From Psilocybe cubensis (Eukaryota): a stretch of 64,000 bases of DNA. Location: positions 1,860,001 to 1,924,000 of the forward strand of contig CM039000.1 of the NCBI GenBank assembly GCA_017499595.2, written 5' to 3'. The notes beneath the pieces are model-generated. The model was not told the origin of the DNA, searched no databases, and saw nothing but the letters and a program-made list of their open reading frames with translations. The position numbers and the translations under genes are program-made. Each line of letters starts with the position of its first letter. Position 1 is the stretch's first letter. Below, in pieces: positions 5,418 to 61,277 of this stretch.

Positions 5418-8400
5418 ATGGCTCACGCAAGACGCTCACCGCAACATAGAGCAACGTCACCATCTGTCAGTTCTCCATCCACTACTCGAAAGAACTCCTT
5501 AAGACGTTCCACGAGCAGAACATCGTCTCGTGCGCCTACCGAATTCATTCCATCTACGTCTTTCCACACTCTCAGACCTGTCTTGGTTCCTCTCGAATCA
5601 AATCTACGTCGTCAACCATCCAGAACCGCCCTTACTCACAAAGTTGACGGGCTGGACCAGCTGATGCGCGATCCAGGTCATGTGATCGCCGGGTCCAAGA
5701 GAAAGCGCGTTACTAGCAGTAATGAGAATGCGCATACTCACGGTCGACCGACGCGAGGCTCTGGAAGACTCAAACGTCTTCGGACTACTAGCGAGACTGT
5801 TTCGCGCTACCGACGTGCTTCGACTAGCGAAGAAAGTCGCTCAGAAGCCAGCGAAATGGAAGTTGATACCAGAATTGACACACACGAGGAGGACACCGAG
5901 GGTTCCGACGACGAGGAGTGCCCGCAAGGTGGTTATGAAGACGAAGAACATTACGACTCGTGTACGTCTCTATTAATTATACTGTATATATATGCATTTT
6001 TTCACATTTTTCAAAGCGGACGAATTCCTACTTCACTCAGCTTCTCCAAAAAGACTAAACAGACTACTCAAACTTAAACTTGTAGAATTATACGAACTAT
6101 GTGGTCTAACAGGCACCCCACAATCTTTAACAAAACATGAGCTTGTAGATGCCATAGTCAACAACCGTGATGGCTGCGCTTCAGTGCCACCATCATCACC
6201 ACTGGGTAAAGGGGATGGTGCATCGTCGGAATATTCAAGTGACGATGCTCATTTTGCAGGAGACGAGGAAACGGACGCCGGCGGCTCACGCCTTCCCTCA
6301 CATGGCAGTCCCCTGAAACGGCGGGTAACCACGCACGATTTTGGGGCAGCGCCATTGCGGCCCTTGAAAAACCGTAGTCTCTCGATGGGCAACATTTCGG
6401 GCAACAATGAAGTCCCAAGATCTTTAATATCAGAAAGAAAACTGTTGATGCAGCTGGATGCGAAACAAATTGAGTCAACTGGTCCGAGGTTAGTCATGTA
6501 AATACAAATTGCAAGTATGATGGTCTAATGGTTTGTCTAGGAGAAAAAATACGGCTCGATCTTCTCCAGCGACAAGCACCACAACATCATCATTGAAATC
6601 GTCGCCGCCTGCCACACGATTGCGGTCACGTAATGTTTCTGTCTCTGCAAACTCGAGTGTACCCGAGCCAACGAGCAGAGGTAAAGGGAAAGGCAAGGCT
6701 AAGCAAGTTGAATTTAGTAATGAGGTGGAAATCCACGAGTCGTCATTGAAACTGGGCTCGAGGGGAAAAGAGGTGCAGACACTTGTCGATTCTGAAAGTG
6801 ACTTGACGGAATTGGAAGAAGAAGAAGAAGAAGAAGTGGAAGGTAGAAGAGAGCCTGTTGGAATTCCTAGCCCTCGAAGACTTCGCAGCAAAGATCGCGA
6901 AACGGAGAGATCAGTGGCCAAGCAAGTAGAAGATCCCGACGTGACTCCCATTGCCAGATCAAAGCAGCAGAGAAGAATTCGGGGCGTCAGTCATGATCGA
7001 ACTATGGACAATGCTGAGAGTTCCACGAATCGTAATCGACGAGTTACTCCTATGCGGAAAGCGAAGAGAAAAGTCGGAAATCTGAAGGAATCCGATCCTG
7101 AGGACCGTGATGAAGAAAAGGAAGCAGACGAAGTTCAAGAAGAAGGAGAGGAAGAAGAAGAAGAGGAGGAGGAGGATCTTCAGCCTGGCAACAATGAAGA
7201 CGACGACGACGAAGCCGGTGAGGAGGATGAGGTCGATGAACTAATTTCATCTGCTTCTATAACACCTCCACCCGAATCCCACGGGCGCCGCACCCCCCTT
7301 AGGAGGAGACTTCGGCCAAGAAAGTCAAGAAACAGGGTTGCACCTACCGTTGATGAAGAGAACGAAGGAGACGATGAGGAGGAAGCGGAAGGAGAGGAAG
7401 GGGAGGAAGGCAATGATGGCGAGGAAGATGAGGAAGATGATGTGGAGGGTAATCAACAAAGTATAGCAGATGATGGAGACGATGAGGTTACAATTGCGGT
7501 TGAACCACGGAAATTGAGGAATGGAAAGATAGTCGGTGAAGAAGACACAGAGATGGATGTTGATGAAGAGTCCGTTGCAGACCAAGATGAAGATGGTGAA
7601 GTTGAGGATGAAGTAGATGATGCTGCAAGCATTGATGTCGACGCTGAAGGGGAAACAGATGAGGACGAGACCATGGAAGATGATGGTATGTCATCCTTTG
7701 AGTTACAGCGACAATACTTTTATCTTACAATTTTAAGTTGACTTAACGGTCGCCACAGCCAAAACCCTCGTCCGGATGCGACGAGACGATCTCGTGCGGC
7801 TTTGTGAAACGAGAGACCTCGATCCATCGGGAACCAAGCCTCAACTTGCTGAAGCCCTCTTACAATGGAGAGATCGGCAAGGGAACGATTTCTCGTCTCC
7901 ATCTTCAGGAGGCACAGTCCGCCCTGCGTCTAAGAAGAAGAAAAGGACTAAACACCATTCTGATTCCACCAATACCGCTGTTCCTGTTCTCCTTCGTTCT
8001 GCCCATAATCACACAGATGAGCCTCGCACACCAGTACCTGGCAAGGATAAAGAAGGGAAAGACAAGGAAAATGAGGAATTAGAGCTGGATCTGGAAAGTC
8101 TGGGGCTGGAAGATCGTGAAATACCTCCTGAAAAGCTTACCAAGCTGGAGAAAATTGGTAGTGGAGGCTTCAAGGATGTGTTCATTGGTAAGTTCAAGAA
8201 CAGGAAAATTGCCATCTCAGAATTTCGTGGCCAATTGAGCACCAGTATGTATCTTCGACTCAGTTACGTCCTTTGCCGTTTTGACGTGACTTTTACAGTG
8301 GATATCAAAGAACTTAAATTGCTCGGCGCTTTCAATCACCCCAATATCGTCCGATTTGTATGTCATAAACGCGATATTACGGCTCTCAACACTAATCTTC

Positions 8401-9207
8401 TTTTAGCTTGGTGTCAGTATACCTGAGAACACCAAAGAGACTCCAGTCATGATCGTCAGCGAGTTGTGTTCCAATGGTGACCTCTTCGATTATATTCGCA
8501 ATACCAATGCGCCCTCTTTACGCAAAGTTGTGAGTACTTTACTTTATTGATATATTGATCTTTGTTTTATTATTATCGTTTGCACAGTTGTTGATGATGC
8601 TTGACATCGCCAGAGGCCTTGAATATCTCCACACCAGGAAGCCTTCAATTATCCATCGTGACTGCAAATCTTCCAACATTCTCATTACAGCTAAAGGTAC
8701 TGCCAAAATAGCGGATTTTGGCCTTGCCAAGGTGAAACAATCCACTCGCTCGATGGTACGCAGTCTAGTTGGCACTGTCAACTGGCAGGCTCCCGAGTTG
8801 TGGACGGCACATCCCAAATACAACCACAAAGTGGATACATTTTCTTGCGCGATGGTATACTGGGAAATGCTTCAGTGGCATGCGCAGACCAAGAAATTTC
8901 CTTGGGAGGTTTGTGTAGTGTGGTTATTTATACCTTGAGCAACGGAGACTCACTCTCCAACTGTAGGGGATGAACGAACATGCAATTTATGAGATTGTGG
9001 GTGCTAAACGCCAAAGGTGAGTCAAGATCATTTTAGTTTGTTTACAGTTCTCAGTCGTCTTTCAGACCACCTATTAACAACCTTCGGAAACAATGGTGCC
9101 CGGAAATTGTTGACCTTATGGAAAGGATGTGGGCACAAGAACATCAAGACAGACCAACTATGACTGAAGTAGTTAAGGCACTTGAAGAACTTTTGGCGAC
9201 GTATTAA
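5418..9207 (+). CDS. Ser/Thr protein kinase (TKL-like) with a long acidic N-terminus and SAP/HeH-like modules
   Basis: The C-terminal kinase domain has [36 protein letters not shown] and a final RPTM. Multi-exon; stop at 9205-9207. Confidence 0.9.
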
Positions 9208-9482: not shown

Positions 9483-11682
9483 TTACATTCTTTCTGCTTT
9501 GAATTTCGAAATTTTTTTGCCGGGTTTGGTTTCATCTACAGGCGGTGCATGCGCTGAGGCGGTTGGTTGTGGAGTCGACTCGCGCACAGTTGATATGACA
9601 GCGGGCGGTCTTTCCGGCCGCCTAGATGTCTCTGCCGGTAAATGATAAGACAGTGAACTAGTTGACGACATCCCTTCTCGAGGCTTTGGAAATGACGGAG
9701 ATTCTACAATCATAGAGAAATTTGACGAATTGGGAACCTTTGAAGCCAAACCTGTGTCAGTGGTTCGCGTATCTGCCTTCATATAGTCTTTCACAAATTT
9801 CCGAGATTCTAAATCGAGTTTGGGGGAGGACCTTTCATCATGGAACACAGGAGTAACAGAGGGCGAAGAGATGTTGGATAAAGATGTACTCGAGTTTGAG
9901 GTATGTTTGGAACCTGGCCGGCCTGACGCTGCAAGCGATGCTTTAAATTTCGATACTGTGGGCTTTTTGAGTGGTGGAGGTGGCGGCATATTACCCCACC
10001 GCTGAGGTGTTCCTTGGGCACCAGAAGATGGTTGGACGGTCATGTTATGCGTCTGAGGTATTTGATTTGGATGAACTGTATGAAGGTATTCGCCATTTGG
10101 ACCTAGGTTATATACCTCGCCCTTTTTCAAGAGTTCGAGGACTTCTCGCATTGCATGGTCTTCCTCGTCACTTTCACTGTCTGCTTCTGCGCCAACGAGT
10201 TTGCCGTCTAAATCCAGTTTGCCTGTCTTGATGGCACGTTGGATTGTACGTGTCGAGGATGCTGGTAATACAGATTCACCTAACGAGACTGATTCCGATT
10301 CTAGTGCGGCAGAAGCTCCATATGCAGAAGCGAGTTTTTGTGCTCTAAACTGAGACATGACGGGTTTCTGGCCCTCCCGAACAGGTTCTGTGGTTGCTTC
10401 CTGGTACAATTACTTGCGATAAGTATATCAAACTGGTTGAATGTTACACGTACCCTATGGACATCTAATTCATGAGAATGATTCATTATTGCAGCGGCCG
10501 TTGCTTGACCAATGGTGTTCCGTTTATTATAATATTCCAGGGCAATCTCGCGTTGTTGCTGAGCAAAGTCGAATTCGAATTCGTCAGTCTCTAAGATGGG
10601 ATTGACATCGATCATCTCATCATAATCTTCTGACGATTCGGTGTTACTTCCCTCGTCGGATTCGTCGTCCGAGTCAACCATATTCTGTAATGGTAAAGGA
10701 GATTTTGGCAAAGTACCTTGCCCCCCCGGGAGGCGTTCGACAACAGACATTTTCATAGGGTGCATGTCGAGAAGAGACTGAGATGCTAATGTCGCTCGCT
10801 TGGTATTTTGAAGCCTTGCTGGAGTGACGTCTCCCCAGTTAGAACTAGCGATCACCTCGTTTCCCTCTGACTTTTGCATACTCTCTGGATTTTCGACAAA
10901 TGCGACTGTTTTTTTCTTCCCAGACGGAGACTTGCGTTGTAAATCCGCTTGCTCATCTTTGAGACGCTGGGCTTCCCTCTCTTGCTCTTCGACTTCTTTA
11001 GCCCTGCCTATATTTTTTAACAAGGCGCGGCCCATCTTTTTCTGTAACTCTTTTGCCTCTTTTAACTTTTCCTTTTGTTTCGCAGTATCTTCTGTGCGCT
11101 TCTGTAGGGCTTCATCATTTTCTTGATTTCGTCGTTCTTGTTCACGAAGTTCAATCTGCCTTTCTTCTTCTTCCAAAAGGTCTAGAATTCGATCCCGCTT
11201 TTTTCGCATCCTTTCTCGATCAAGTGGCGAAAGTGATGCCAAAGGGACCAAGGGCTCGACGGTAGCAGGCGAGGCCATGGATATCGAAGTTGCATCATCA
11301 GGCTCAGTTATTTCGATGATAGGTAGCCCCTCTTCATTTAACATCTGAATAATATATATGGTAGCATAAGGACAGTGGTATATGGATTGCAATCATATGT
11401 ACTTCACCGCGCTCATTACGGCCTTGCTGGAAAGCCTCAGCAGCTTCAGGTCCCATTAGTTCAGTAAGCTTTTGAGTGAGCTTTTCAATAGCATCTGGGC
11501 CAAGTTTTCTATTCGATGAGGCATCGGCAGCTTCTGGGATGATAGCTTGGATGAGGGCACGGAGAGCTGGAAAGGCAGCATAATTGAATTAATATGCAGG
11601 AGAGAGACGTATTGATACATATACACTCACATTCTTCGCTGCCTTCTGACAAATTTTTTAGATTGGATTGTGGTTGAGTCAT
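9483..11682 (-). CDS. Bud27/URI-like protein (DUF3835-type C-terminus), no prefoldin domain seen
   Basis: Has the motif LNEEGLPIIEITE, a coiled coil, RVxF-like KKTVAF, an acidic tract, QQQREIALEYY and the terminal KKISKFKAERM, resembling Bud27/URI features. Four exons. Confidence 0.6.
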
Positions 11683-36222: not shown

Positions 36223-37706
36223 TTATCGAATAATAAACGATCTTGTTTCAGACTCTGGTGGGTTTGGCGTTGCAACTAATGATGAAGACATGGAGGACAA
36301 GGATGTTGTTGAAGAGATGGCAGAAAGGTTGACATAGTGTGGTTGCGTGGACGTGAGAGGGTGTTCGTCTTTCTTTTCGTTTTTGAGCCACATCCACGAA
36401 TCCTTATTGATGGCGAGATTAATACGAGCTGGATGTTGGTTGTAAAGCCATGTGGCAATGAGGACGATAACAGATCCAAGCACGAAGGTGATGGTCATTT
36501 GGAAATTGAACAGAGCCACTGAAGCCAGGAAAGAGATGACAATGCTGAGACTGGTGGCAAAGCCTTTGAGAATGTTGTCGGAGTATTTGATGACCATGGC
36601 TGTTACCAGCCCACCCAAAACTTGAACCCAGACGGTTGCCCATGCCCATGCTCCGAAATTCTCAAATAATGAAGAAGTAAGGCTTTTTCCGATTTGGGCA
36701 CCATTGCTTTGTTGGTCGAAAATAATAGGTGCGAGTGCGGGCAGAAGTGAAAATAGGGAAAGTTGCACATTGCGAACCCAGAGATCGGCCTGAGAGTTCT
36801 TAAGAACCATCTCAAAGTATACGCCAGCAAGGCCAGACGTAAAGCAGGCAGCAAAGACGGCTAAGAAGCCCTTCATAGGATTCATTGAGTGCGCAACAAC
36901 GTTTGTTGATGGAGCCACCGAAGCCGATTTATCCACGCCGGATTGGATTTGAACGATTCCAACACCGATAGCAAGGAACAACAATGATATCCATTGGGCT
37001 GTCGATAGTTTCTTGCGTAAAAGCAAGACGGAAAATGCTGCTGTCGTTAATATCTTCATTTGATAGGTCACTTGAAATGTGGCAGCCTCTAGATTGGATG
37101 CAGCCACGTATTGCAGATTATTTTGGATGACTAGCTGGAATGTTACTAACGAGAGCCATGACAGATATAAAGGGAGAATTACCGTAGAGAATAGCGGGAA
37201 TTGACAGCTTCCAGCAATCTTGACTGAATATTTCCTTCGACAACTTCCGGAGGCGGACAGATAGGCGATTGACGAGCGACCGCTGAGATATGTGAGAGAC
37301 TTGCCCCACTTCATACGCAGAAGGGGATTCGATACGAGCAAATGCAATAAGAAGGGAGATTGTCCCTTTCAAAATTTCGTTCATTAAAACAGCCGTTGCT
37401 GCGGAATAGGTACGTGAAGGTGGAGTAGAGACGCGAGAATAGTGCATGATGATAGTGAGTGCTGAATTTTGAACCGCCAGAGTTACCAATCTGTAGAACA
37501 GTACGATATTTCAGCTTCACGTTTAAGCATTCAACGACATTCTACAGTACTGACGAGAGGTACTTGAGGGGTATGCCCCATAGCGACGGGAGGGATTGGG
37601 TTGGAGGAGGATTATTCGTCATGGCGAGCTCGATGTCCGAGTCGCGATCGTCATTGTCCTTTGCCTTCAGACTTATACTGAGCTGAGGCAGGTGTGGGTT
37701 GGACAT
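36223..37706 (-). CDS. Nucleotide-sugar (UDP-galactose/UDP-GlcNAc) transporter, SLC35A family
   Basis: Contains LVTLAVQNSALTIIMHYSR, KLSIPAILY, QNNLQYVAASNL, YQMKILTTA, SGLAGVYFEMVLK and KYSDNILKGFATS. Confidence 0.93.
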
Positions 37707-40466: not shown

Positions 40467-43400
40467 ATGGATGTGTTCGAGGCCAGGTATGGATACAAAT
40501 ACTGTGTTGCACCGCCTTCTTACCCTACATCCAGTGATGCAAACGAAGAATCGCAGGCTACTCAGCTACTTCAAGAGCTCCTGGATCAAAAATCAAGTCC
40601 AATCAAAAGACCAGAAGAAGACCGAAACTCAGCTGCATATAAGACGCGGAGCGCACACACCAATGAGATATCTAGCGATTCCATAACGTCCTCCCGTAAT
40701 TCCAACTCTTTGCCGCATTATCATTTTCACGGTTTGGCCTCCACTCAAACAGAGTCTCAACAACAAGGCGAAGATGAACAGGCGAATGAAGGATCTCAGA
40801 AAGAGAACATTGGATCGTTAAAACAGACCAAAGATTTTGAACACTCTAGTCCGTCCCTGGCTACAAGACCGGGTTCACCTTACCAGTCGTCATCCAGGAA
40901 TGTACAAACCAGGGCAGGAACAAGGGCACAAGCCAAAGGGTCTGCAATACCCAAAGAGAAGGTAAGAAATCCCAATGTCCGTGATCAAAAATGCCGAATT
41001 GCTTACCCCTCCACAGACAACAAACAAAAAGGCCCCGACTACGGTTGCCTTTCAGTCGCCTCAAGCCAAGCCGTCCACTAGCAATACCAGGAGCAGCAAA
41101 CCCGTGACACGACAAAGCCCATATAAACCAACCCTGGCCGCGTCGCGTTATAAACCGGTACAACGTCGATCTTCGTCAGAAGATTCCTTTGCCCAAGATC
41201 CAGAGCTTGACGAACAGTTATTCATAGCTAGATCAGAGAAATTCAACATTCCTATCTCTGAACTTGCCAGGAACTCGTCTCCAGAACCTGAAGCAAAGTC
41301 ACCCCCAATGTTCCAATCCCGTTCTAGTGGCCGCATGCCACAGATAAGAGGGATGGACTCACCTCATGGCAGAATACTCGTTGAAGCAACTCCTTCACAA
41401 TCAACTAGCTCCCAAAAATCTCATCATATTGAAGAAACACAGATCAGCGAAGAGCCACAATATGAGGATATGCTTCATAACCCACTCACTGCGAACAGAC
41501 ATGTTGAGGATGTAGGCTACCAAAGTAGTGAACATTCTTCGAGCTATGGAGAAATGGCGAAAGAGCCAGAGCAAGAACTGCAACCGACACAACCTTCGAC
41601 TCAATTGCAACTTGAACAGACCCAGCCATCGACACAAGTAGAAGAATCTGACATATTGGCACCGCTTTCTGTGCAATCTCCGTTCAGCATAAATCCCTCT
41701 CATGCAGCTGGCCCGTCCACCGTTAACAGCGGCCCACGATCTCTATTGGCCCTCGTTAATCCCGGTGCCCTGTACCGTTACAGTGCATACAGACAGGACG
41801 AAAAACATCTACATCGTAGGGCAACTGGCGGTTGGACTGTCCCTGAGAAAGACTTACATCTGCAGCGCGCTACCTCTCCCCCGAACGCTGTCTCTAGAAG
41901 GTCCAATCTGCCTCCGCCTCATGCTAAACGCGGGTTTAGCGACGATGCCTTTGCAGGCTCACTTTCACCCGAGCCTATGGATGTGGACATAGTCCCAGAC
42001 TCAGAACCATTGCGCAATGATGTCGAGCTTTCGTCCAGAAGAACACGTAATTCTGCACCAGGACAACCGTCCGCGAATCCTGGTCTTCCAAAGTCAAATC
42101 AAGAGCCTGTCAAAGTAGCAGATATGTGTCCACCCCCTGAAGCAAAGCTTCATCCAGTGCCCGCAGAAGATGAGGACGAAGATGAAGATGGAGTTCCCTT
42201 AGCTACTGTGATAGCAGCGAAAAGACCAAGGGGTAGACCGCCTAAGAATCCCCCAAGTAAGGGAAAGGGGAAAACGTTGAACGAAGCAGGGGCCAAAGTA
42301 AGATATTTAAACGCGCTTCTAGATTTCGGCACTAACATTGAAATGACAAAGGCTACAGCGGTAGCACCTCCTTCTAAAGAAAAGAAAACTCAGAAGAGGG
42401 TTACGGGTGGTTCTTGGGAAACAGGGGTGGTACCATCTTCTGTACCAGATCAGGACGAAGCCTCTGCCCCGCGGGGCATTATCGACATCCCAAAGAAGAA
42501 ACCTCCAGCATCTCGACAAAGTACAAGATCGACCTCTGCGGCACCTAAATCAGGCGAGAACCAATGGGCAGCGTCGGAGTTGAAGACCAATAACGATAAA
42601 CCAGCGGAGGTGGATATCACAGAGGAAGAGGAAGAGGAAGAGTCTGGCCCGTCCCGCAAACGTAAACGAACTGCTCAAACCAAGGCTGCTCCAGCAACTA
42701 GGAGTGCTAAAGGTGTCGCAAAGCGTGTTAAGCGTGAGACTGCAACGCCTGGTGGCGGACGACAAGCTAAAAATCTACGTTCGACTCACTCAACGGCCAC
42801 AAGGCTTAACAACGAGCCCGGAACTCGTGTGTTTGCGCTTTGGAAACAAGACGGGCATTATTATTCTGGAACAGTGCATTCCGCGGAACCTGGCAATCAA
42901 TATCTTATTCATTTCGACGATACGACAAGCAATAAGGTAACTCTGGAACAAATGCGTCTCTGTCGTCTACAGATCGGAGACCAAGTTATCGTTGCCAATA
43001 CCTACCGGCCTACAAAAGTGCTGAGCGTTGAAGTAGATGGCGATGATATCACCGTCGGGGTAAACCTAGAGGATGGTGTCAAACAAGTACCTCTTATTCA
43101 TCTCCGAATCGCTAACAAGACCATAACATACGAATGGAAAGATCGCGTGCTTACGGCAGATGCGATTTCTACCACTATCAAGCCAGTCAGGGCAAAATTA
43201 AGTCCTTCGCCATCGAAGTTATCCATAGCCAGCTTCCCTGCGATGCGGGGGCCACGCAAGAAGGTTCTCAACAACACGGCCCTCATCGTAACTCTAAGCG
43301 CAGTCAATGGCAGCTGGGAGAGAGAGAAGGAGAAAGTTGTAAATGCTGTAAAGAATAGTGGTGGATTGGTTGTCGATGATATGTCGACCATAATTCGCAT

Positions 43401-44201
43401 GGAAGGAAAGCATTCCGCGAACAACAACCGATGGATCATCAGAAAAAACGATGTTCAATGGGTCGGGGACGAAGACATCGCACGCCTTTTCTTGCTGGCT
43501 GATGAACCTAATCAAAAGCCCAAATTTTTGATTGCACTCGCTCTGGGCATTCCTTGCCTTTCAACTACTTGGTTACACGAATCGGTCGAGAATGTCAGTC
43601 TTAACTTTTACATTATTTCTGTATCTTAATGCTCATGATTTTTAGAATGCTGAGAAAGAGTGGACTGGGTACTTGTTACCACAGGGATTCTCTCCTGCTT
43701 TAAAAGCTCGCATCTCCCAACAGGTTGATGTTGACTGGGGCAACAGTTTCTATCAACTCAAAGATATAATGTCGAATGCGGTTGCCTGCAAGCTTTTCGC
43801 CGATAAATCTATTCTATGTGTCGGTCCCGAAATGGTTTGTCAACCCAAAGGCAAAAGGGTACGTTGTAATTTCTTACTTATGTGATGTCTCAGTACAAAC
43901 ATTTCCTATATCTTTCTTATAGAGGGCGGTTGTCGATGACAAAGCACAGGAGGCCACCAATGCCATTCCACAAATCATACTGGCTATGGGCGCAGACAGA
44001 GTTGAAGCGGTTACGGACGTACGTTACGCTACGCATCAACTACAAGAATACGACTATCTTGTCATACGAGAGAAACATCACTACTCGCCAGGATATTCGC
44101 AATGCCCCTCTGTCGTCGATTGGACATGGGTCAAAGAATGCTTGATTGCATCCCGCTACTTGACCACACCTTCGTGGGGGGAGGACTCGCAGGAAGCCTA
44201 A
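40467..44201 (+). CDS. Rad9/Crb2/53BP1-like DNA damage checkpoint mediator (Tudor plus tandem BRCT); start approximate
   Basis: SQ/TQ-rich disordered N-terminus, Tudor-like RVFALWKQDGHYYSGTV, and BRCT signatures KFLIALALGIPCLSTTWL and VVDWTWVKECLIA. Confidence 0.8.
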
Positions 44202-46093: not shown

Positions 46094-48029
46094 TTAACCG
46101 ACGCTGCGTGTGCGTGAAGCACGCCCTCTATTGAGAATAGCGGAGTCCCCTGGAAGATGAGCAGAAAGCGCATCTCCTGACAGAAGGCCCGCTTCTTCGT
46201 CATCTACCGTCCGACTATGAGACGCTGGGTTGTGTCGTCGAGGTCGTGGGCGATAGCAGAATGATTGAGATACAATTGTGATGTCAAATAGTAACGTCCC
46301 TCCACTACCAAGAAGGTACCTAACGTCAATGCAATTAGTGTAGGTCGAACATGTGTAACTCTGGGACTAACGGTATGCTGTCTTTGATATATTTTGTGGA
46401 TTCCGGAGGAGGGAGATATCGTCGCGGGGAAAGCAAAATCGACGCCACATAAAATGTATTGCCTAGGAAGGCAAACACAAACAGATACATAGAAAGGCCC
46501 TATCCAAGATCAATAATGAGAGAAGGTTCTTTTACAACTGTGAACAGGTACCTCTACTGATTTTCTAGCATACTGACACATTTTTGTTAGCGAAAAATTG
46601 ATTATATGTCATTTTGAGGACGCACGTTCTTCCAAATCTGAGGCAATCGAGATGTGAGGTATAATGTTGTACATAGCCAGGCAAAAATACGACCAATTAT
46701 CTGTTGTTCTGAAGGTTCGTCAACAGGGGGGCTCTCTTCTGGTTCTCGTGGCAAAAGGCTATTCGGATAAAATGATGTGGGGATTGTGACGGAGACATAG
46801 GAAAAATGTTGTACGTCTCCTTGCTTGGTATATACAAGTTCTTCATTGGACGGTACCGATAAAGTGCTGCCAGTACGACTTTGAGTGGACAAAACACGAC
46901 CAATACCATTTAGACTGTCTGATGGGATTCCGCGTTTACCGCTGGTTAAAGTACCAATACCGAATAGTGCCCATACGGCAAGAAATACCATATTCGAGCC
47001 TTTCCGAGAGGCGCGAGAACTGCGAGTATTTGGTGCTTGAGTAAGAGATTCTGTAGAATCGAGAACTACGGGGTCGTGAGATGACTGTGCTATTCCGGAG
47101 TCGCGTGGAGATAAGACAGGGTCCCTAGAACCAAAGTCCAACACAGTAGGTGTTGCAGATCTACGTCCCTGGCCAACGCTTGAGGCCCTACCATGACGTT
47201 CAATACTCCAAGAAACTCGTTTGGATTGGGGATCTCTTCCACGTTCAGAATAGAAGCTTTCAATCATAGCTGCAGGAGGATCATCTTCAAGTTCGTCTCC
47301 TTGATCTAATCCGCCGTTACTAGCTTCTGGTCCCCGTGGTCGATTGATCTTGGCCGCAAAACGAGAATTTGACCTTCGGGGATTAGCCTGCTCGTCATGG
47401 TGTGCCGCCAGTGCAGCGGCTGTTGCCACATTTGAAGCTGCAACCGACAGAGCACGATACCTTGATGCACCTCTGTCGATCGACAATCTCCGATGTGCTG
47501 CTGGGGTGGAAGCTGAACGAATATGGCCCAATGCAGAGGACGAGGTTTTAGGCGATTTATAGTAGTATGCATATTGCAGAACTAGCATCATGTCAATGAA
47601 GACGAAGTAAGTGGCTAGCCATGTCTGGATTTACATTAGCATTCAGACAATTAGGTCATAAATCAGTGACCGCACCTGAAACGGCAGTTGATGGGTCATA
47701 ATGCAGCCAACGAGATTGGAGATGTCACCTAAAGACTATCTTCAGAAAAGCAAAGTGTATAAAGCAACCGAACACTATACCGAGCAACCAGTTGGCAAGG
47801 AATGGGAGTGCAAGGCCCTCGCACGACTGGCGTCTGATATTTTCAACCACCTGGCTGAGATCGACACGGTCAGAAGAGATAGTGAAGATATAAAGAATAC
47901 GACCAACGGGAACTGAGCACCCAGCCAGCATGCTATTGACGCAAAGCCCAGGAATTCGCTTAGCGAGTCTGGCAGCATTCTGCCTACCGCTTGGGAGGGA
48001 AGAGAAAGAGGCGAGTAGGACATGTCCAT
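46094..48029 (-). CDS. PQ-loop vacuolar/lysosomal amino acid transporter (Ypq/PQLC2-like)
   Basis: Two PQ motifs (CWLGAQFPQ, YLTSRLPQIWKN), SCEGLALPFLANWLLGD, YLLGSGGTLLFD and an acidic dileucine motif DEEAGLL. Start at 48029 or 47978. Confidence 0.88.
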
Positions 48030-58208: not shown

Positions 58209-61200
58209 ATGGCTTTTTGGCCAAGTGATGAAAGGAACAAACGTCCTATCGTGTCTAAACGCAAGGGAAGGAAGGTTTTGGAGATCTCCAAGGGCCGCGA
58301 TTATCCCAACTTAGAGCCAGGTTTAATTGGTGCAGCCACATTATCAGAAGGAAATAACAACAAGTTAGAATGGGATTTTTTAACGATGCCTAACAAAGGT
58401 CAAATATTTCTTGCACTGTTTTAATCTACTGACTTGTGCGCCTAGATTTTTCTCTGAATCGCCTAAACATTGGGAAACGTTTGGAAGTATTCCCTCAATC
58501 ACCACCGTTATCCAGTAGAAACACCTCTCGCACTGTACGGCAAAGAGCTGAACAAGGGGTGCGTTTTTTGAGTGTTGTCGTGTTTTATCGTCAGCTTACG
58601 AAGTGTTAGGCAAATTTCCTTCGAACCTATCTCCCCGATGTGGAAATCCCGTCGGAACTTATACGAGACCAACTGCTGGAGGAGACTCAAATATGCGACG
58701 ATCTCGAAGTATTCGACCCATATTCAGGAAATTTACTTGAGGTATCTACGTCTCCTCAAGACCCAAACAGTGCACTTTTATTGTTTCCGACGGGGGACAC
58801 AAATAGGGATTTAAGTGAGTTTGTCCATCTTTTATACCAATTGACCAAACTCATTTCTTCAGCTATCACATACGTTAGGAGCTTAAAACCTCGGAGCATA
58901 CTGTTCAGACCTACTCCTACGCCTCTGTGGAGCTTCTCTACACCCATTCAGCAAATAGAGACGTTGATGGGATTGGGCACGTCATCACCATAAGATGCTA
59001 GATTTGTCGGATGCTCACGCTTCTAATCAGGTGTCAATCTTGTTGTTCGAACCTACAGCTCCACGGAAATGTTCAGCATAGAACATCCTAACCATCATAC
59101 GACGACTACTGCTACAACAAGACGTGTTGCTCGCTTTTCGCGTTCTGATACCAATGATGAAGTGATTGTCGATGCCAAAATTCAGCCTTTCTCTGAAAGC
59201 ATGTTAGTTATTAGCGACCAAGGAACCTTATTCAATTGTACAGTGCAAAATGGGGAAAGATCAGCGTTTGTTCTATTCATGTGTGTTTTTCTATTTTAGA
59301 TTGATCTAGATTATGAAACAGCATTTCGCTACACACTTTCTCGCCTTCTATTCAAAACAAAAGCGGCTTCTGGCGTTTATCTCTTGCATCTAATGGATCG
59401 GTCAGCTATGTGATGTCCGAGAAAACTGTTGAACAGTTTGACAATCGGGTATTGTTTTTTTGTGTTTATGCCGTCCTGCTCTAATTTTCTACTAGACAAA
59501 TACAGTGCAGAGTTTCTTGTCCATCGCTAATCAAAATCACATTTTAACATCAATAGAAAGCTGTAGACACTCAAATATTCTTCCGTTGTGTTCCACCGAT
59601 CAAGTTATCTGGATGGACACCAGATTTACAGGGAAACCACTACTTGCCTACTCACATGGAAGGCAACGCGACCGGTACATATCAACGCAGACCTTGTATC
59701 ACAGGGCCAATACTTGTGAGTGTCCATGGGGCAAGCTAATTTCGGCAGCTGAACCCAATATGCAGCTTTGACATTTTTGACATCTCGAAATAATGGTCTA
59801 GTCACCGTATATGATGTCTCCCGTCCATCTGAGGGGCTCTTCCACCTCAATGATTCTCCATATTCCGTGTTTGGAAGTATCGATACGTATCAAAGACATC
59901 TCGGGCAACAATTTCTATCTCTAAATGAAACTCTCGGACTTGTACGCCTATCAGAGCTTAAGGGTGTCGAGTTCACAGAAATTCTTTCGTTACCATCAGA
60001 ATCCCGCAATGGCCACGCAATAGAATTATCTGAAGATGTTATACAGAACAGAGACCCACAGGCCGTTGTTCCTGCGGATCTTGGCCCACTTAGCATTCAA
60101 GAATTCAGTCAAGTTAATTTAAATTCTGTATACAAAGGTGGTGTAAATAATCCCCCTCTGTACGATTATTGCTAAAATTGTTCTCTAGAACTCTTTCAAA
60201 CCCATTTTGAAAAGATCAAACGGCTCGAAGAAGAAGATGCTGAAATGTTTCACGATATGGTCGACAATTTCCCCCGGTATCTGCAAAGTAAAGAAATACC
60301 AACGGATCACATATTAACAACGTAAGTTTGTATACCAACAATCTGACATACTGTTTGGTGATTGCTGTAACAGATATGATATAGCATTTTGTGCTGGTGA
60401 ACCACCAGGTCAACCTGGTAGAGCCGATTTTCTTACTGAAAGCTTGATTTCTTCCAAAAGAGGCTACAGGGCGCTTAAGCAAGGGCGCCTATCTGCTGAA
60501 CTCGTCAGATCACCTTGGCATCGGTCAATTTCTTCCGTCCTCCGACATTTGGACCCATCCTTTCCATCAGGGCCATTACAATCAATGGAGTACCTTCAAA
60601 GTTTTCAACCACTGGATAATGCGTGTTACTCAAATAAAGCTCGTGAATATGCACAGGACTCGTGCGAGCAGTTGACCGTGGATCTCGCTTTAGGTTCCGA
60701 TATCTATTTCGATGATACAATCTTTAATAAAGCAGAAGCCGGCGTACTGGAAGTTATGACTCAGGCGCTATCCATTGACGGTGGTCCTCCGCCTATTCGA
60801 TTTGGATACTTAACGCCTGTAGAGAAAAATCGATCATATTATGCCGGAGAATCGCAGATCTCAGAAGGCTTACGCTTGCCTCTGGGGGTTCGACTGTTGT
60901 TAAATGACTGGGATTCCGGTAATCCTGACGATTATATCTATAAAAATCCATACGCCGCCGCTTTTCTAGAGACCAAACAATTAAATCAGCCAGCGACCCT
61001 TGAGCCGACATCAAGTTTGCCTGTAAAACTCCAACGTCCACCGCAAATCATGGCGTCCAATACAGTTTCAGCCGCTCCTCCTGAAATACATAAAAAATTG
61101 ACATTAAAATCACTATCTCAAGATCCTTACCCTCCTTCGATAAACGAATTCAAGAATTCGCAAGCAAGCACACCTCCTCAAGGTCTCGCCACAAGTACTC

Positions 61201-61277
61201 AGATAATGCCAGGTCCACACGGTGGAAGGCCGGCTCCCAAGAAAAAGCCACCGAAAAAAAGATTGGGAGGGTTTTGA
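58209..61277 (+). CDS. RRN6: RNA polymerase I core factor subunit Rrn6/TAF1C-like
   Basis: Multi-exon model with beta-propeller-like segments (QVIWMDTRFTGKPLLAYSH) and the C-terminus STQIMPGPHGGR..KKKPPKKRLGGF, resembling the Rrn6 K-rich tail. Confidence 0.65.

Follow-up and report, generated by a model that had tools for sequence, protein, structure and literature searches.

A candidate relocated catalytic lysine in a fungal family of SAP-domain kinases

The kinase gene at 5418-9207 on the forward strand of a 64,000 nucleotide (nt) stretch of the Psilocybe cubensis genome (assembly GCA_017499595.2, contig CM039000.1, positions 1,860,001 to 1,924,000; the whole stretch is called the window here) encodes a protein in which the lysine of the canonical VAIK motif is replaced by serine and in which a lysine is found in the glycine-rich loop instead. 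This is the arrangement that gave the WNK (With No K) kinases their name, and it raises the question of whether the product is an active enzyme, a pseudokinase or a WNK. The earlier note on this DNA took it to be a probably active kinase that had reached the arrangement independently, or else a chimeric or divergent one. The reading favoured here, with a probability of about 0.62, is that the gene belongs to an ancient fungal family of SAP-domain kinases of the tyrosine kinase-like (TKL) type, whose members would be active through a lysine on strand beta2 and whose exchange of residues would be independent of that in WNKs.

The exchanged residues and their conservation

The glycine-rich loop reads GSGGFKDV (8157-8180, forward strand, as are all features of this gene), with lysine (AAG, 8172-8174) in place of the third glycine of GxGxxG. 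Strand beta3 reads IAIS (8208-8219), with serine (TCA, 8217-8219) where the VAIK lysine would be. Both codons were read on the base ruler exactly where the earlier note had placed them, and the equivalences that it assumed are upheld when HMMER aligns P0009, an orthologue from Hypholoma with 91% identity to the window kinase domain, with the kinase domain of Arabidopsis CTR1. In this alignment the loop lysine lies opposite the third glycine of the CTR1 loop, the beta3 serine lies opposite the lysine of VAVK, and the glutamate of MDIKELKLL is aligned with the alphaC glutamate. In the window that glutamate is at 8310-8312, as placed by sequence and exon phase, and it is the expected salt-bridge partner of a catalytic lysine. 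The lysine at 8172-8174, on strand beta2, is proposed to be that lysine in its relocated position.

The HRD and DFG motifs, which had been described as intact, are so. The translation of exon 7 contains the catalytic loop HRDCKSSN (8654-8677) and an activation segment (8714-8797) that runs from DFG (8714-8722) to APE (8789-8797), has conserved Ser/Thr within it and closes with GTVNWQAPE, ending at 8797. This segment is nearly invariant among the Agaricomycetes orthologues. Splicing was also checked: the glycine-rich loop and beta3 lie uninterrupted in one open frame of exon 4 (7738-8244), with 36 nt between them, and because they share this exon alternative splicing is unable to supply a VAIK lysine.

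Of the 2592 candidates in the primary ortholog search, 414 proteins had E <= 0.001. The best 120 of the 414 all have the loop IGSG[GS]FKDV (120/120), with Ala at beta3 in 61 and Ser in 60, the latter count including the window's own exon; this set has 123 sequences in all, the other two being short pieces of the window that do not cover the motif. Eight short orthologues were also made into a profile (A1), and its search against 1.84 billion representatives gave 1661 proteins at E <= 1e-30, the best 150 of which were used. Across all of the sequences gathered there are 514 kinase-domain rows with the loop column filled, and 369 of these, from 369 proteins, combine a loop lysine with the absence of a beta3 lysine. 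These 369 proteins constitute the family. At beta3, where lysine is never seen, the residue is Ala in 144, Gly in 102, Ser in 92, Cys in 25, Thr in two and Asp in one, with a gap in three; the six rows with Thr, Asp or a gap are visibly disturbed and are probably gene-model errors. A small residue (A, G, S, C or T) is thus present in 365 of the 366 proteins that have a residue there, as would be required for a side chain to cross over from beta2. The loop lysine is found in 145/145 rows of the family alignment A5. The sole row outside the family with a loop lysine is a degenerate domain of the four-domain protein P0194, where the beta3 lysine is also present.

The other catalytic residues are each present in at least 99% of family members. 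Among the filled rows these are the alphaC Glu (345/348), the HRD Asp (319/321), the catalytic-loop Lys and Asn (319/320 each), the Asp, Phe and Gly of DFG (323/324, 323/324 and 322/323), the Glu of APE (318/319) and the Arg of subdomain XI (313/313). The expectation that GGFK and a non-lysine beta3 residue would be kept in Agaricomycete orthologues therefore holds in 369/369 proteins and far beyond the Agaricomycetes. The exchange is a trait of the whole family and not of the Psilocybe gene alone.

There are also lineage-specific differences at neighbouring positions. Members from the Ustilaginomycotina have AVE or AAE for APE (in the family, Pro in 281, Val in 28 and Ala in 8 of 319), and in early-diverging fungi Cys replaces Val at the end of the glycine-rich loop (GSGGFKDC), as seen in 100 of the 369 family proteins.

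Range and relationships of the family

The family spans the Basidiomycota, Mucoromycota, Zoopagomycota and Aphelida, the organism names having come from two further profile searches. Besides Agaricomycetes, there are members in the Tremellomycetes (Cryptococcus neoformans, C. gattii), Microbotryomycetes (Rhodotorula, Sporobolomyces, Microbotryum), Pucciniomycetes (Puccinia, Melampsora, Phakopsora) and Ustilaginomycotina (Sporisorium, Pseudozyma, Malassezia, Tilletia). In the search set for these four groups the loop lysine is present in 70/70 rows, P0009 included, and the beta3 residue is Ala in 38, Cys in 18 and Ser in 14. Mucoromycota members come from Mucor, Rhizopus, Mortierella, Rhizophagus and Gigaspora, those of the Zoopagomycota from Coemansia, Basidiobolus, Dimargaris and Linderina, and those of the Aphelida from Amoeboaphelidium and Paraphelidium. 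Here the loop lysine is found in 111/111 rows that include the N-lobe, with Gly at beta3 in 96. These early-diverging members are of about 370 amino acids (aa) and consist of SAP and kinase only, many with a precomputed PF02037 match. No Ascomycota or Chytridiomycota were among the named matches of the three family searches, none of which was aimed at either group. The family appears to be single-copy.

One protein of 1040 aa, P0287, is labelled as coming from the fern Adiantum nelumboides and has motifs of the Ustilaginomycotina type (HRDVKSTN, and AVE for APE). This is most simply fungal contamination of a plant assembly.

Two trees were made, both unrooted and both with the two trait columns removed. 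The FastTree tree drew on the 240 domain matches in which 230 or more of the 270 columns were filled, and only 12 hand-picked rows were kept from the primary ortholog search, giving 163 rows; the 61 rows with a loop lysine (61/61) are on one side of a branch with support of 92. The IQ-TREE quick search (LG+G4) had 111 rows, made up of 35 hand-picked family rows across the lineages and 76 non-family domains from P0162-P0266 with at least 235 columns filled and with the HRD His and Asp and the DFG Asp present; other family representatives and degenerate domains were left out. In this tree too a single branch parts the family from the other rows, with an SH-aLRT value of 92 (approximate likelihood ratio test of Shimodaira-Hasegawa type), and the family divides into Basidiomycota (98) and early-diverging (93) subclades. 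The branching follows fungal phylogeny, with Cryptococcus sister to the Agaricomycetes (99) and the order within the Basidiomycota matching the accepted one. The window protein groups with Coprinopsis and other Agaricomycetes. Its SAP motif, loop lysine, small beta3 residue and position in this clade make it a member of the family.

Since the family is a single clade whose branching follows that of the fungi, the pattern is that of a vertically inherited orthologue in which the exchange would have happened once, before these phyla separated. The direction of change, a loss of the beta3 lysine, is taken from the universal presence of that lysine in protein kinases. The suggestion that the gene might be chimeric finds no support, the gene tree following the species tree.

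In both trees the rows closest to the family from outside it are three tandem domains of P0233 (801-1057, 1113-1372 and 1439-1697). These have Arg at the third-Gly position of the loop, a beta3 lysine, and degraded HRD and DFG motifs (HTDIQGDQ, DFN/DLN), and may represent an intermediate state or else an artefact of long branches. The best non-family representatives include many giant proteins, among them P0162, P0170, P0171, P0179, P0183, P0188 and P0193, in which a kinase domain or a fragment of one is repeated 4-15 times in tandem. In many of the repeats the beta3 Lys, HRD or DFG is missing, and the proteins look like arrays of pseudokinase domains.

The family is TKL-like by sequence and by fold, in agreement with what had been read from the window. 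Against the chains of the PDB, P0009 matches CTR1 best (137.8 bits, E 4.6e-39), followed by DLK, ZAK, TNNI3K, BRAF, ABL and Fes, and the Mucor member P0381 also matches CTR1 best (154.6 bits, E 3.5e-44), followed by TNNI3K, DLK, BRAF and ABL. In Pfam, PF07714 (PK_Tyr_Ser-Thr) scores 157.6 bits against a cut-off of 23.1 bits, slightly above PF00069 (Pkinase) at 153.1. The catalytic loop HRDCKSSN is of the Ser/Thr type HRDxKxxN and not of the tyrosine kinase (TK) type HRDLAARN, and the W-x6-RP of subdomain XI, which is common to TKs and TKLs, is present (definitions as given in PMC3937382). Annotators have labelled family members 'TKL/TKL-ccin' (Coprinopsis, Lyophyllum, Rhodotorula) or 'TKL protein kinase' (Cryptococcus, Microbotryum, Mucor), and a protein-cluster search with P0206 returned generic TKL-type clusters only (RIPK2, Mos, STY46-like).

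An AlphaFold2 (AF2) model of P0009, the second made, used a diverse family alignment of 145 rows and reached a predicted local distance difference test score (pLDDT) of 82.0 and a predicted template modelling score (pTM) of 0.70. The blocks of the glycine-rich loop and beta3 are at pLDDT 93-96 and the SAP helices (18-27 and 36-53 of P0009) at 96-98, while the activation loop is low. Its best fold match is CTR1 (3ppz), with a template modelling (TM) score of 0.90 on the target, a root-mean-square deviation of 2.3 A and 33% identity, after which come TNNI3K, ABL, ITK, MerTK, MLKL, Fes, ZAK and BRAF.

Activity and origin of the arrangement

In WNK1 and POMK the VAIK lysine is absent, a lysine on beta2 is present instead, and mutation of that lysine is reported to abolish activity (PMC10211241). 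A 2026 review of the WNKs describes the pair formed by the beta3 lysine and the alphaC glutamate as required for catalysis, with the WNK lysine placed on beta2 (PMC13686953). Because the fungal family has the same two changes as WNK1 and POMK, a small residue at beta3, and Glu, HRD, Asn and DFG intact, its members are probably active Ser/Thr kinases that use the beta2 lysine, and the retention of the catalytic residues is more in keeping with an active enzyme than with a pseudokinase that has decayed.

The proposed protein would have one or two SAP motifs leading into a C-terminal kinase domain, and in the Basidiomycota an additional N-terminal extension that is long, acidic and disordered. 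The ATP-anchoring lysine would have gone from beta3, leaving Gly, Ala, Ser or Cys, with a lysine becoming fixed on the third-Gly position of beta2. The side chain of this lysine would pass above the small residue at beta3 to enter the active site, as in WNK1 and POMK, and its likely contacts are a pairing with the alphaC glutamate and with the ATP phosphates, which it would position for phosphotransfer by the intact HRD, Asn and DFG machinery. By analogy with the known role of SAP domains, the motif probably serves to anchor the enzyme on nucleic acid or chromatin, and its site of action would then be the nucleus. The exchange would have arisen once and separately from that in WNK, no later than the common ancestor of the Aphelida, Zoopagomycota, Mucoromycota and Basidiomycota.

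Several observations weigh against this reading. The motif definition of a pseudokinase applies to the family, the VAIK Lys being absent and the HRD Asp and DFG Asp present. The SAP domain of the P. cubensis protein (PF02037, 7770-7868, aa 732-764, directly upstream of the kinase) matches at E 2.5e-4 and 21.1 bits, which is below the Pfam cut-off of 23.9 bits. The first AF2 run, on the shallow alignment of 96 close orthologues, reached a pLDDT of 63.2, and because that model was poor the fold search made with it was weak. The trees are without WNK, NRBP or named TKL references, their non-family rows being unnamed representatives. Finally, the deletion mutant of CNAG_06671/YKL1, the probable orthologue in Cryptococcus, is listed in a supplementary table with 'No notable phenotype' (PMC5052723), which means that the kinase is dispensable there under the conditions tested.

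The last of these points also speaks for a true pseudokinase, one that binds partners, and perhaps nucleotide, without transferring phosphate, its loop lysine being structural or occluding the pocket and the protein serving as a SAP-tethered scaffold or allosteric regulator. Such a reading draws on the absence of the canonical beta3 lysine throughout the family (369/369), on the report that the TKL group has the most pseudokinases, mainly in plants and fungi (PMC10211241), and on the InterPro terms given for CNAG_06671, which do not include the 'ATP binding site' and 'active site' signatures borne by the adjacent row of the table, CNAG_06310 (PMC5052723). That the pseudokinase definition applies does not imply inactivity, because the same definition captures the active WNK1 and POMK (PMC10211241). 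Retention at the level of at least 99%, across lineages that diverged at the base of the Fungi, would be unexpected if catalysis had been lost when the family originated. The replacement lysine is at the exact position that is catalytic in WNK1 and POMK (PMC10211241), and the beta3 residue is almost always small, as would fit a side chain passing over it. A pseudokinase is considered unlikely, though it is the chief rival of the favoured reading.

An extension of the favoured reading is that the vacated beta3 position forms a pocket sensing a small ligand or ion, which by analogy with WNK might make the protein a chromatin-tethered sensor of the ionic, osmotic or crowding state of the nucleus. 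In WNKs the move of the lysine has been proposed to free space for an inhibitory chloride site (PMC13686953). For the fungal family this is a long shot; if it were true there would be functional as well as structural convergence with WNK, kept since the base of the Fungi.

An ordinary but divergent fungal WNK, with the relocated lysine inherited from a WNK ancestor and not convergent, would account for an identical swap at two identical positions. There is presumably also some local resemblance to WNKs around the catalytic loop and in a HPNIVRF motif. WNKs have DLG in place of DFG, with an associated chloride-binding pocket, whereas the DFG Asp is found in 323 of 324 family rows and its Phe is retained with it. 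Three WNK-like sequences are said to occur in Phycomyces, a Mucoromycete (PMC10301571). However, no WNK is among the best 60 of the 2211 PDB matches of P0009 (lowest shown, 99 bits) or the best 60 of the 2164 of the Mucor protein P0381 (lowest shown, 113 bits), nor among the best 50 fold matches of either AF2 model. The 43-residue N-lobe piece that contains the swap has no significant match in the PDB (best E 0.037), with no WNK in the best 60 of 65 matches and POMK at a non-significant E of 0.23. [quoted passage not shown] Among the best 150 of the search of 1.84 billion representatives, every complete domain with a loop lysine and no beta3 lysine falls in the fungal clade. The Pfam scan of the P. 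cubensis protein, P0004, found only kinase and SAP and no CCT-like/OSR1_C domain, for which there would be no room after the kinase, since only 7 of the 1120 residues follow the kinase domain, whose last residue is 1113. Neither RFx[VI], the WNK motif for SPAK/OSR1 (PMC13686953), nor RxFx[VI] is present in P0004. From these rankings and missing WNK features, independence from WNK is inferred, and the beta2 lysine was most likely gained separately from both WNK and POMK; descent from a WNK is very improbable.

An artefact, be it a faulty gene model, an error in sequencing or a pseudogene whose real transcript restores the VAIK lysine, was worth checking given the eight introns and found no support, its probability being negligible when the two motifs share one open exon and identical residues are present in independently annotated orthologues from hundreds of species.

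Gene architecture, setting and known systems

The coding region (5418-9207) has nine exons (5418-5961, 6017-6488, 6541-7685, 7738-8244, 8299-8357, 8407-8529, 8588-8908, 8967-9016 and 9066-9207), mapped by tblastn and by the spliced translation, and eight introns of 49-58 nt, all with GT..AG ends (8/8). The spliced translation of 1120 aa is identical letter for letter to P0004, the 1120-aa UniRef entry for a Psilocybe cubensis 'Protein kinase domain-containing protein' (100% identity with the window exon translation). The N-terminal 720 aa (5418-7685) are of low complexity (E 14%, S 12%, R 10%, D 9%), with long Glu/Asp runs. As this acidic, Ser/Arg-rich arm is missing from the early-diverging orthologues of about 370 aa, it is a Basidiomycota addition. 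Within it, at about 6046-6159 (aa 192-229), is a first SAP-like helix-turn-helix motif, seen by its likeness by eye to the second SAP; the Pfam scan of P0004 did not report it. The kinase domain is at 8139-9183 (aa 855-1113) and has five introns within it.

The neighbouring gene (9483-11392, reverse strand) is convergent on the 3' end of the kinase gene and is an open frame with a DUF3835 match of 27.1 bits. Further along the window there are open frames matching a nucleotide-sugar transporter (36226-37368, reverse, 261.5 bits), a Crb2/53BP1-type Tudor domain (40966-43626, forward), a PQ-loop protein (46605-47630, reverse) and an RRN6 K-rich domain (60318-61274, forward), all four judged to be ordinary housekeeping genes. 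None of five further long open frames has a Pfam match.

A full-text literature search found no description of the loop lysine in the fungal SAP-kinase family, and no published name for the family was found in the literature searched, annotators using TKL-ccin or TKL; the pseudokinase survey of Kwon et al. (2019) may list it. If the family is a third independent case of the arrangement, the swap would have occurred in a canonical-looking TKL kinase and been fixed in 369/369 proteins, from aphelids to mushrooms. The arrangement would then be a recurrent and stable solution, and the family would offer a natural way to ask if relocation and ligand or ion sensing go together. Kinome surveys that rely on motifs will class the whole family as pseudokinases. 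Its orthologues in fungal pathogens (Cryptococcus, Malassezia, rusts, smuts and Mucorales) may be active with an unusual ATP pocket, and the pairing of SAP with a kinase points to an unstudied chromatin-linked signalling protein.

Among fungal kinases, the FslK lineage (fungi-specific and TK-related; Zhao et al. 2014, PMC3937382) shares with this family its fungal distribution, its TK/TKL affinity and its abundance in Agaricomycetes. It is described as having all subdomains, as mostly without extra domains and as absent from Cryptococcus, Ustilaginomycotina and Pucciniomycotina (PMC3937382). Membership of FslK was rejected, the present family occurring in Cryptococcus, Sporisorium, Malassezia, Puccinia, Melampsora and Rhodotorula, lacking the subdomain II lysine and carrying a SAP domain.

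The Cryptococcus neoformans kinase Ykl1 (CNAG_06671) is a probable orthologue, the link being its name and a locus of compatible size. No other gene is described as 'TKL protein kinase' in the Cryptococcus kinome table, which is silent on the lysine arrangement, and YKL1 is not mentioned in the main text of that paper (PMC5052723). The C. neoformans proteins P0325 and P0329 (983 aa), which have this same label, carry GSGGFKDV and VAISE and are sister to the Agaricomycetes in the tree. The missing ATP-site signature of CNAG_06671 fits the missing beta3 lysine, and signature-based annotation flags the family as atypical.

The closest solved relatives, by sequence and fold, are CTR1/Raf-like kinases and MLK-type MAP3Ks (CTR1, DLK/MAP3K12, ZAK, TNNI3K, BRAF). 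These have the same HRDxKSxN catalytic loop and the W-x6-RP of subdomain XI, but they retain the canonical GxGxxG and VA[VI]K, and there is no SAP domain in those matches.

The 2026 review still describes a catalytic lysine on beta2 as 'unique' to WNKs (PMC13686953), and POMK was the only other printed case found in the literature searched (PMC10211241). Like the fungal family, POMK (SGK196) is without the VAIK lysine and its beta2 lysine is required for activity, but its equivalents of HRD and DFG are also relocated and its substrate is a sugar (PMC10211241), whereas the fungal proteins have a canonical HRD and DFG and look like protein Ser/Thr kinases. Reversing the exchange in POMK, with lysine put back on beta3 and glycine in the loop, is reported to have increased its activity (PMC10211241). 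The resemblance to WNK1-4 and the plant WNKs is closer at the active site, with the lysine on the third-Gly position of beta2, a small non-lysine residue at beta3, and the remainder of the catalytic core, alphaC Glu and HRD included, retained. The fungal family differs from them in its TKL-like kinase domain, for which WNK appears in no similarity list, in keeping DFG where WNKs have DLG, and in having SAP upstream and the kinase at the extreme C-terminus. The fungal SAP-TKL kinases are thus probably a third lineage with the beta2 lysine arrangement, after WNK and POMK, and one that would have gained it independently.

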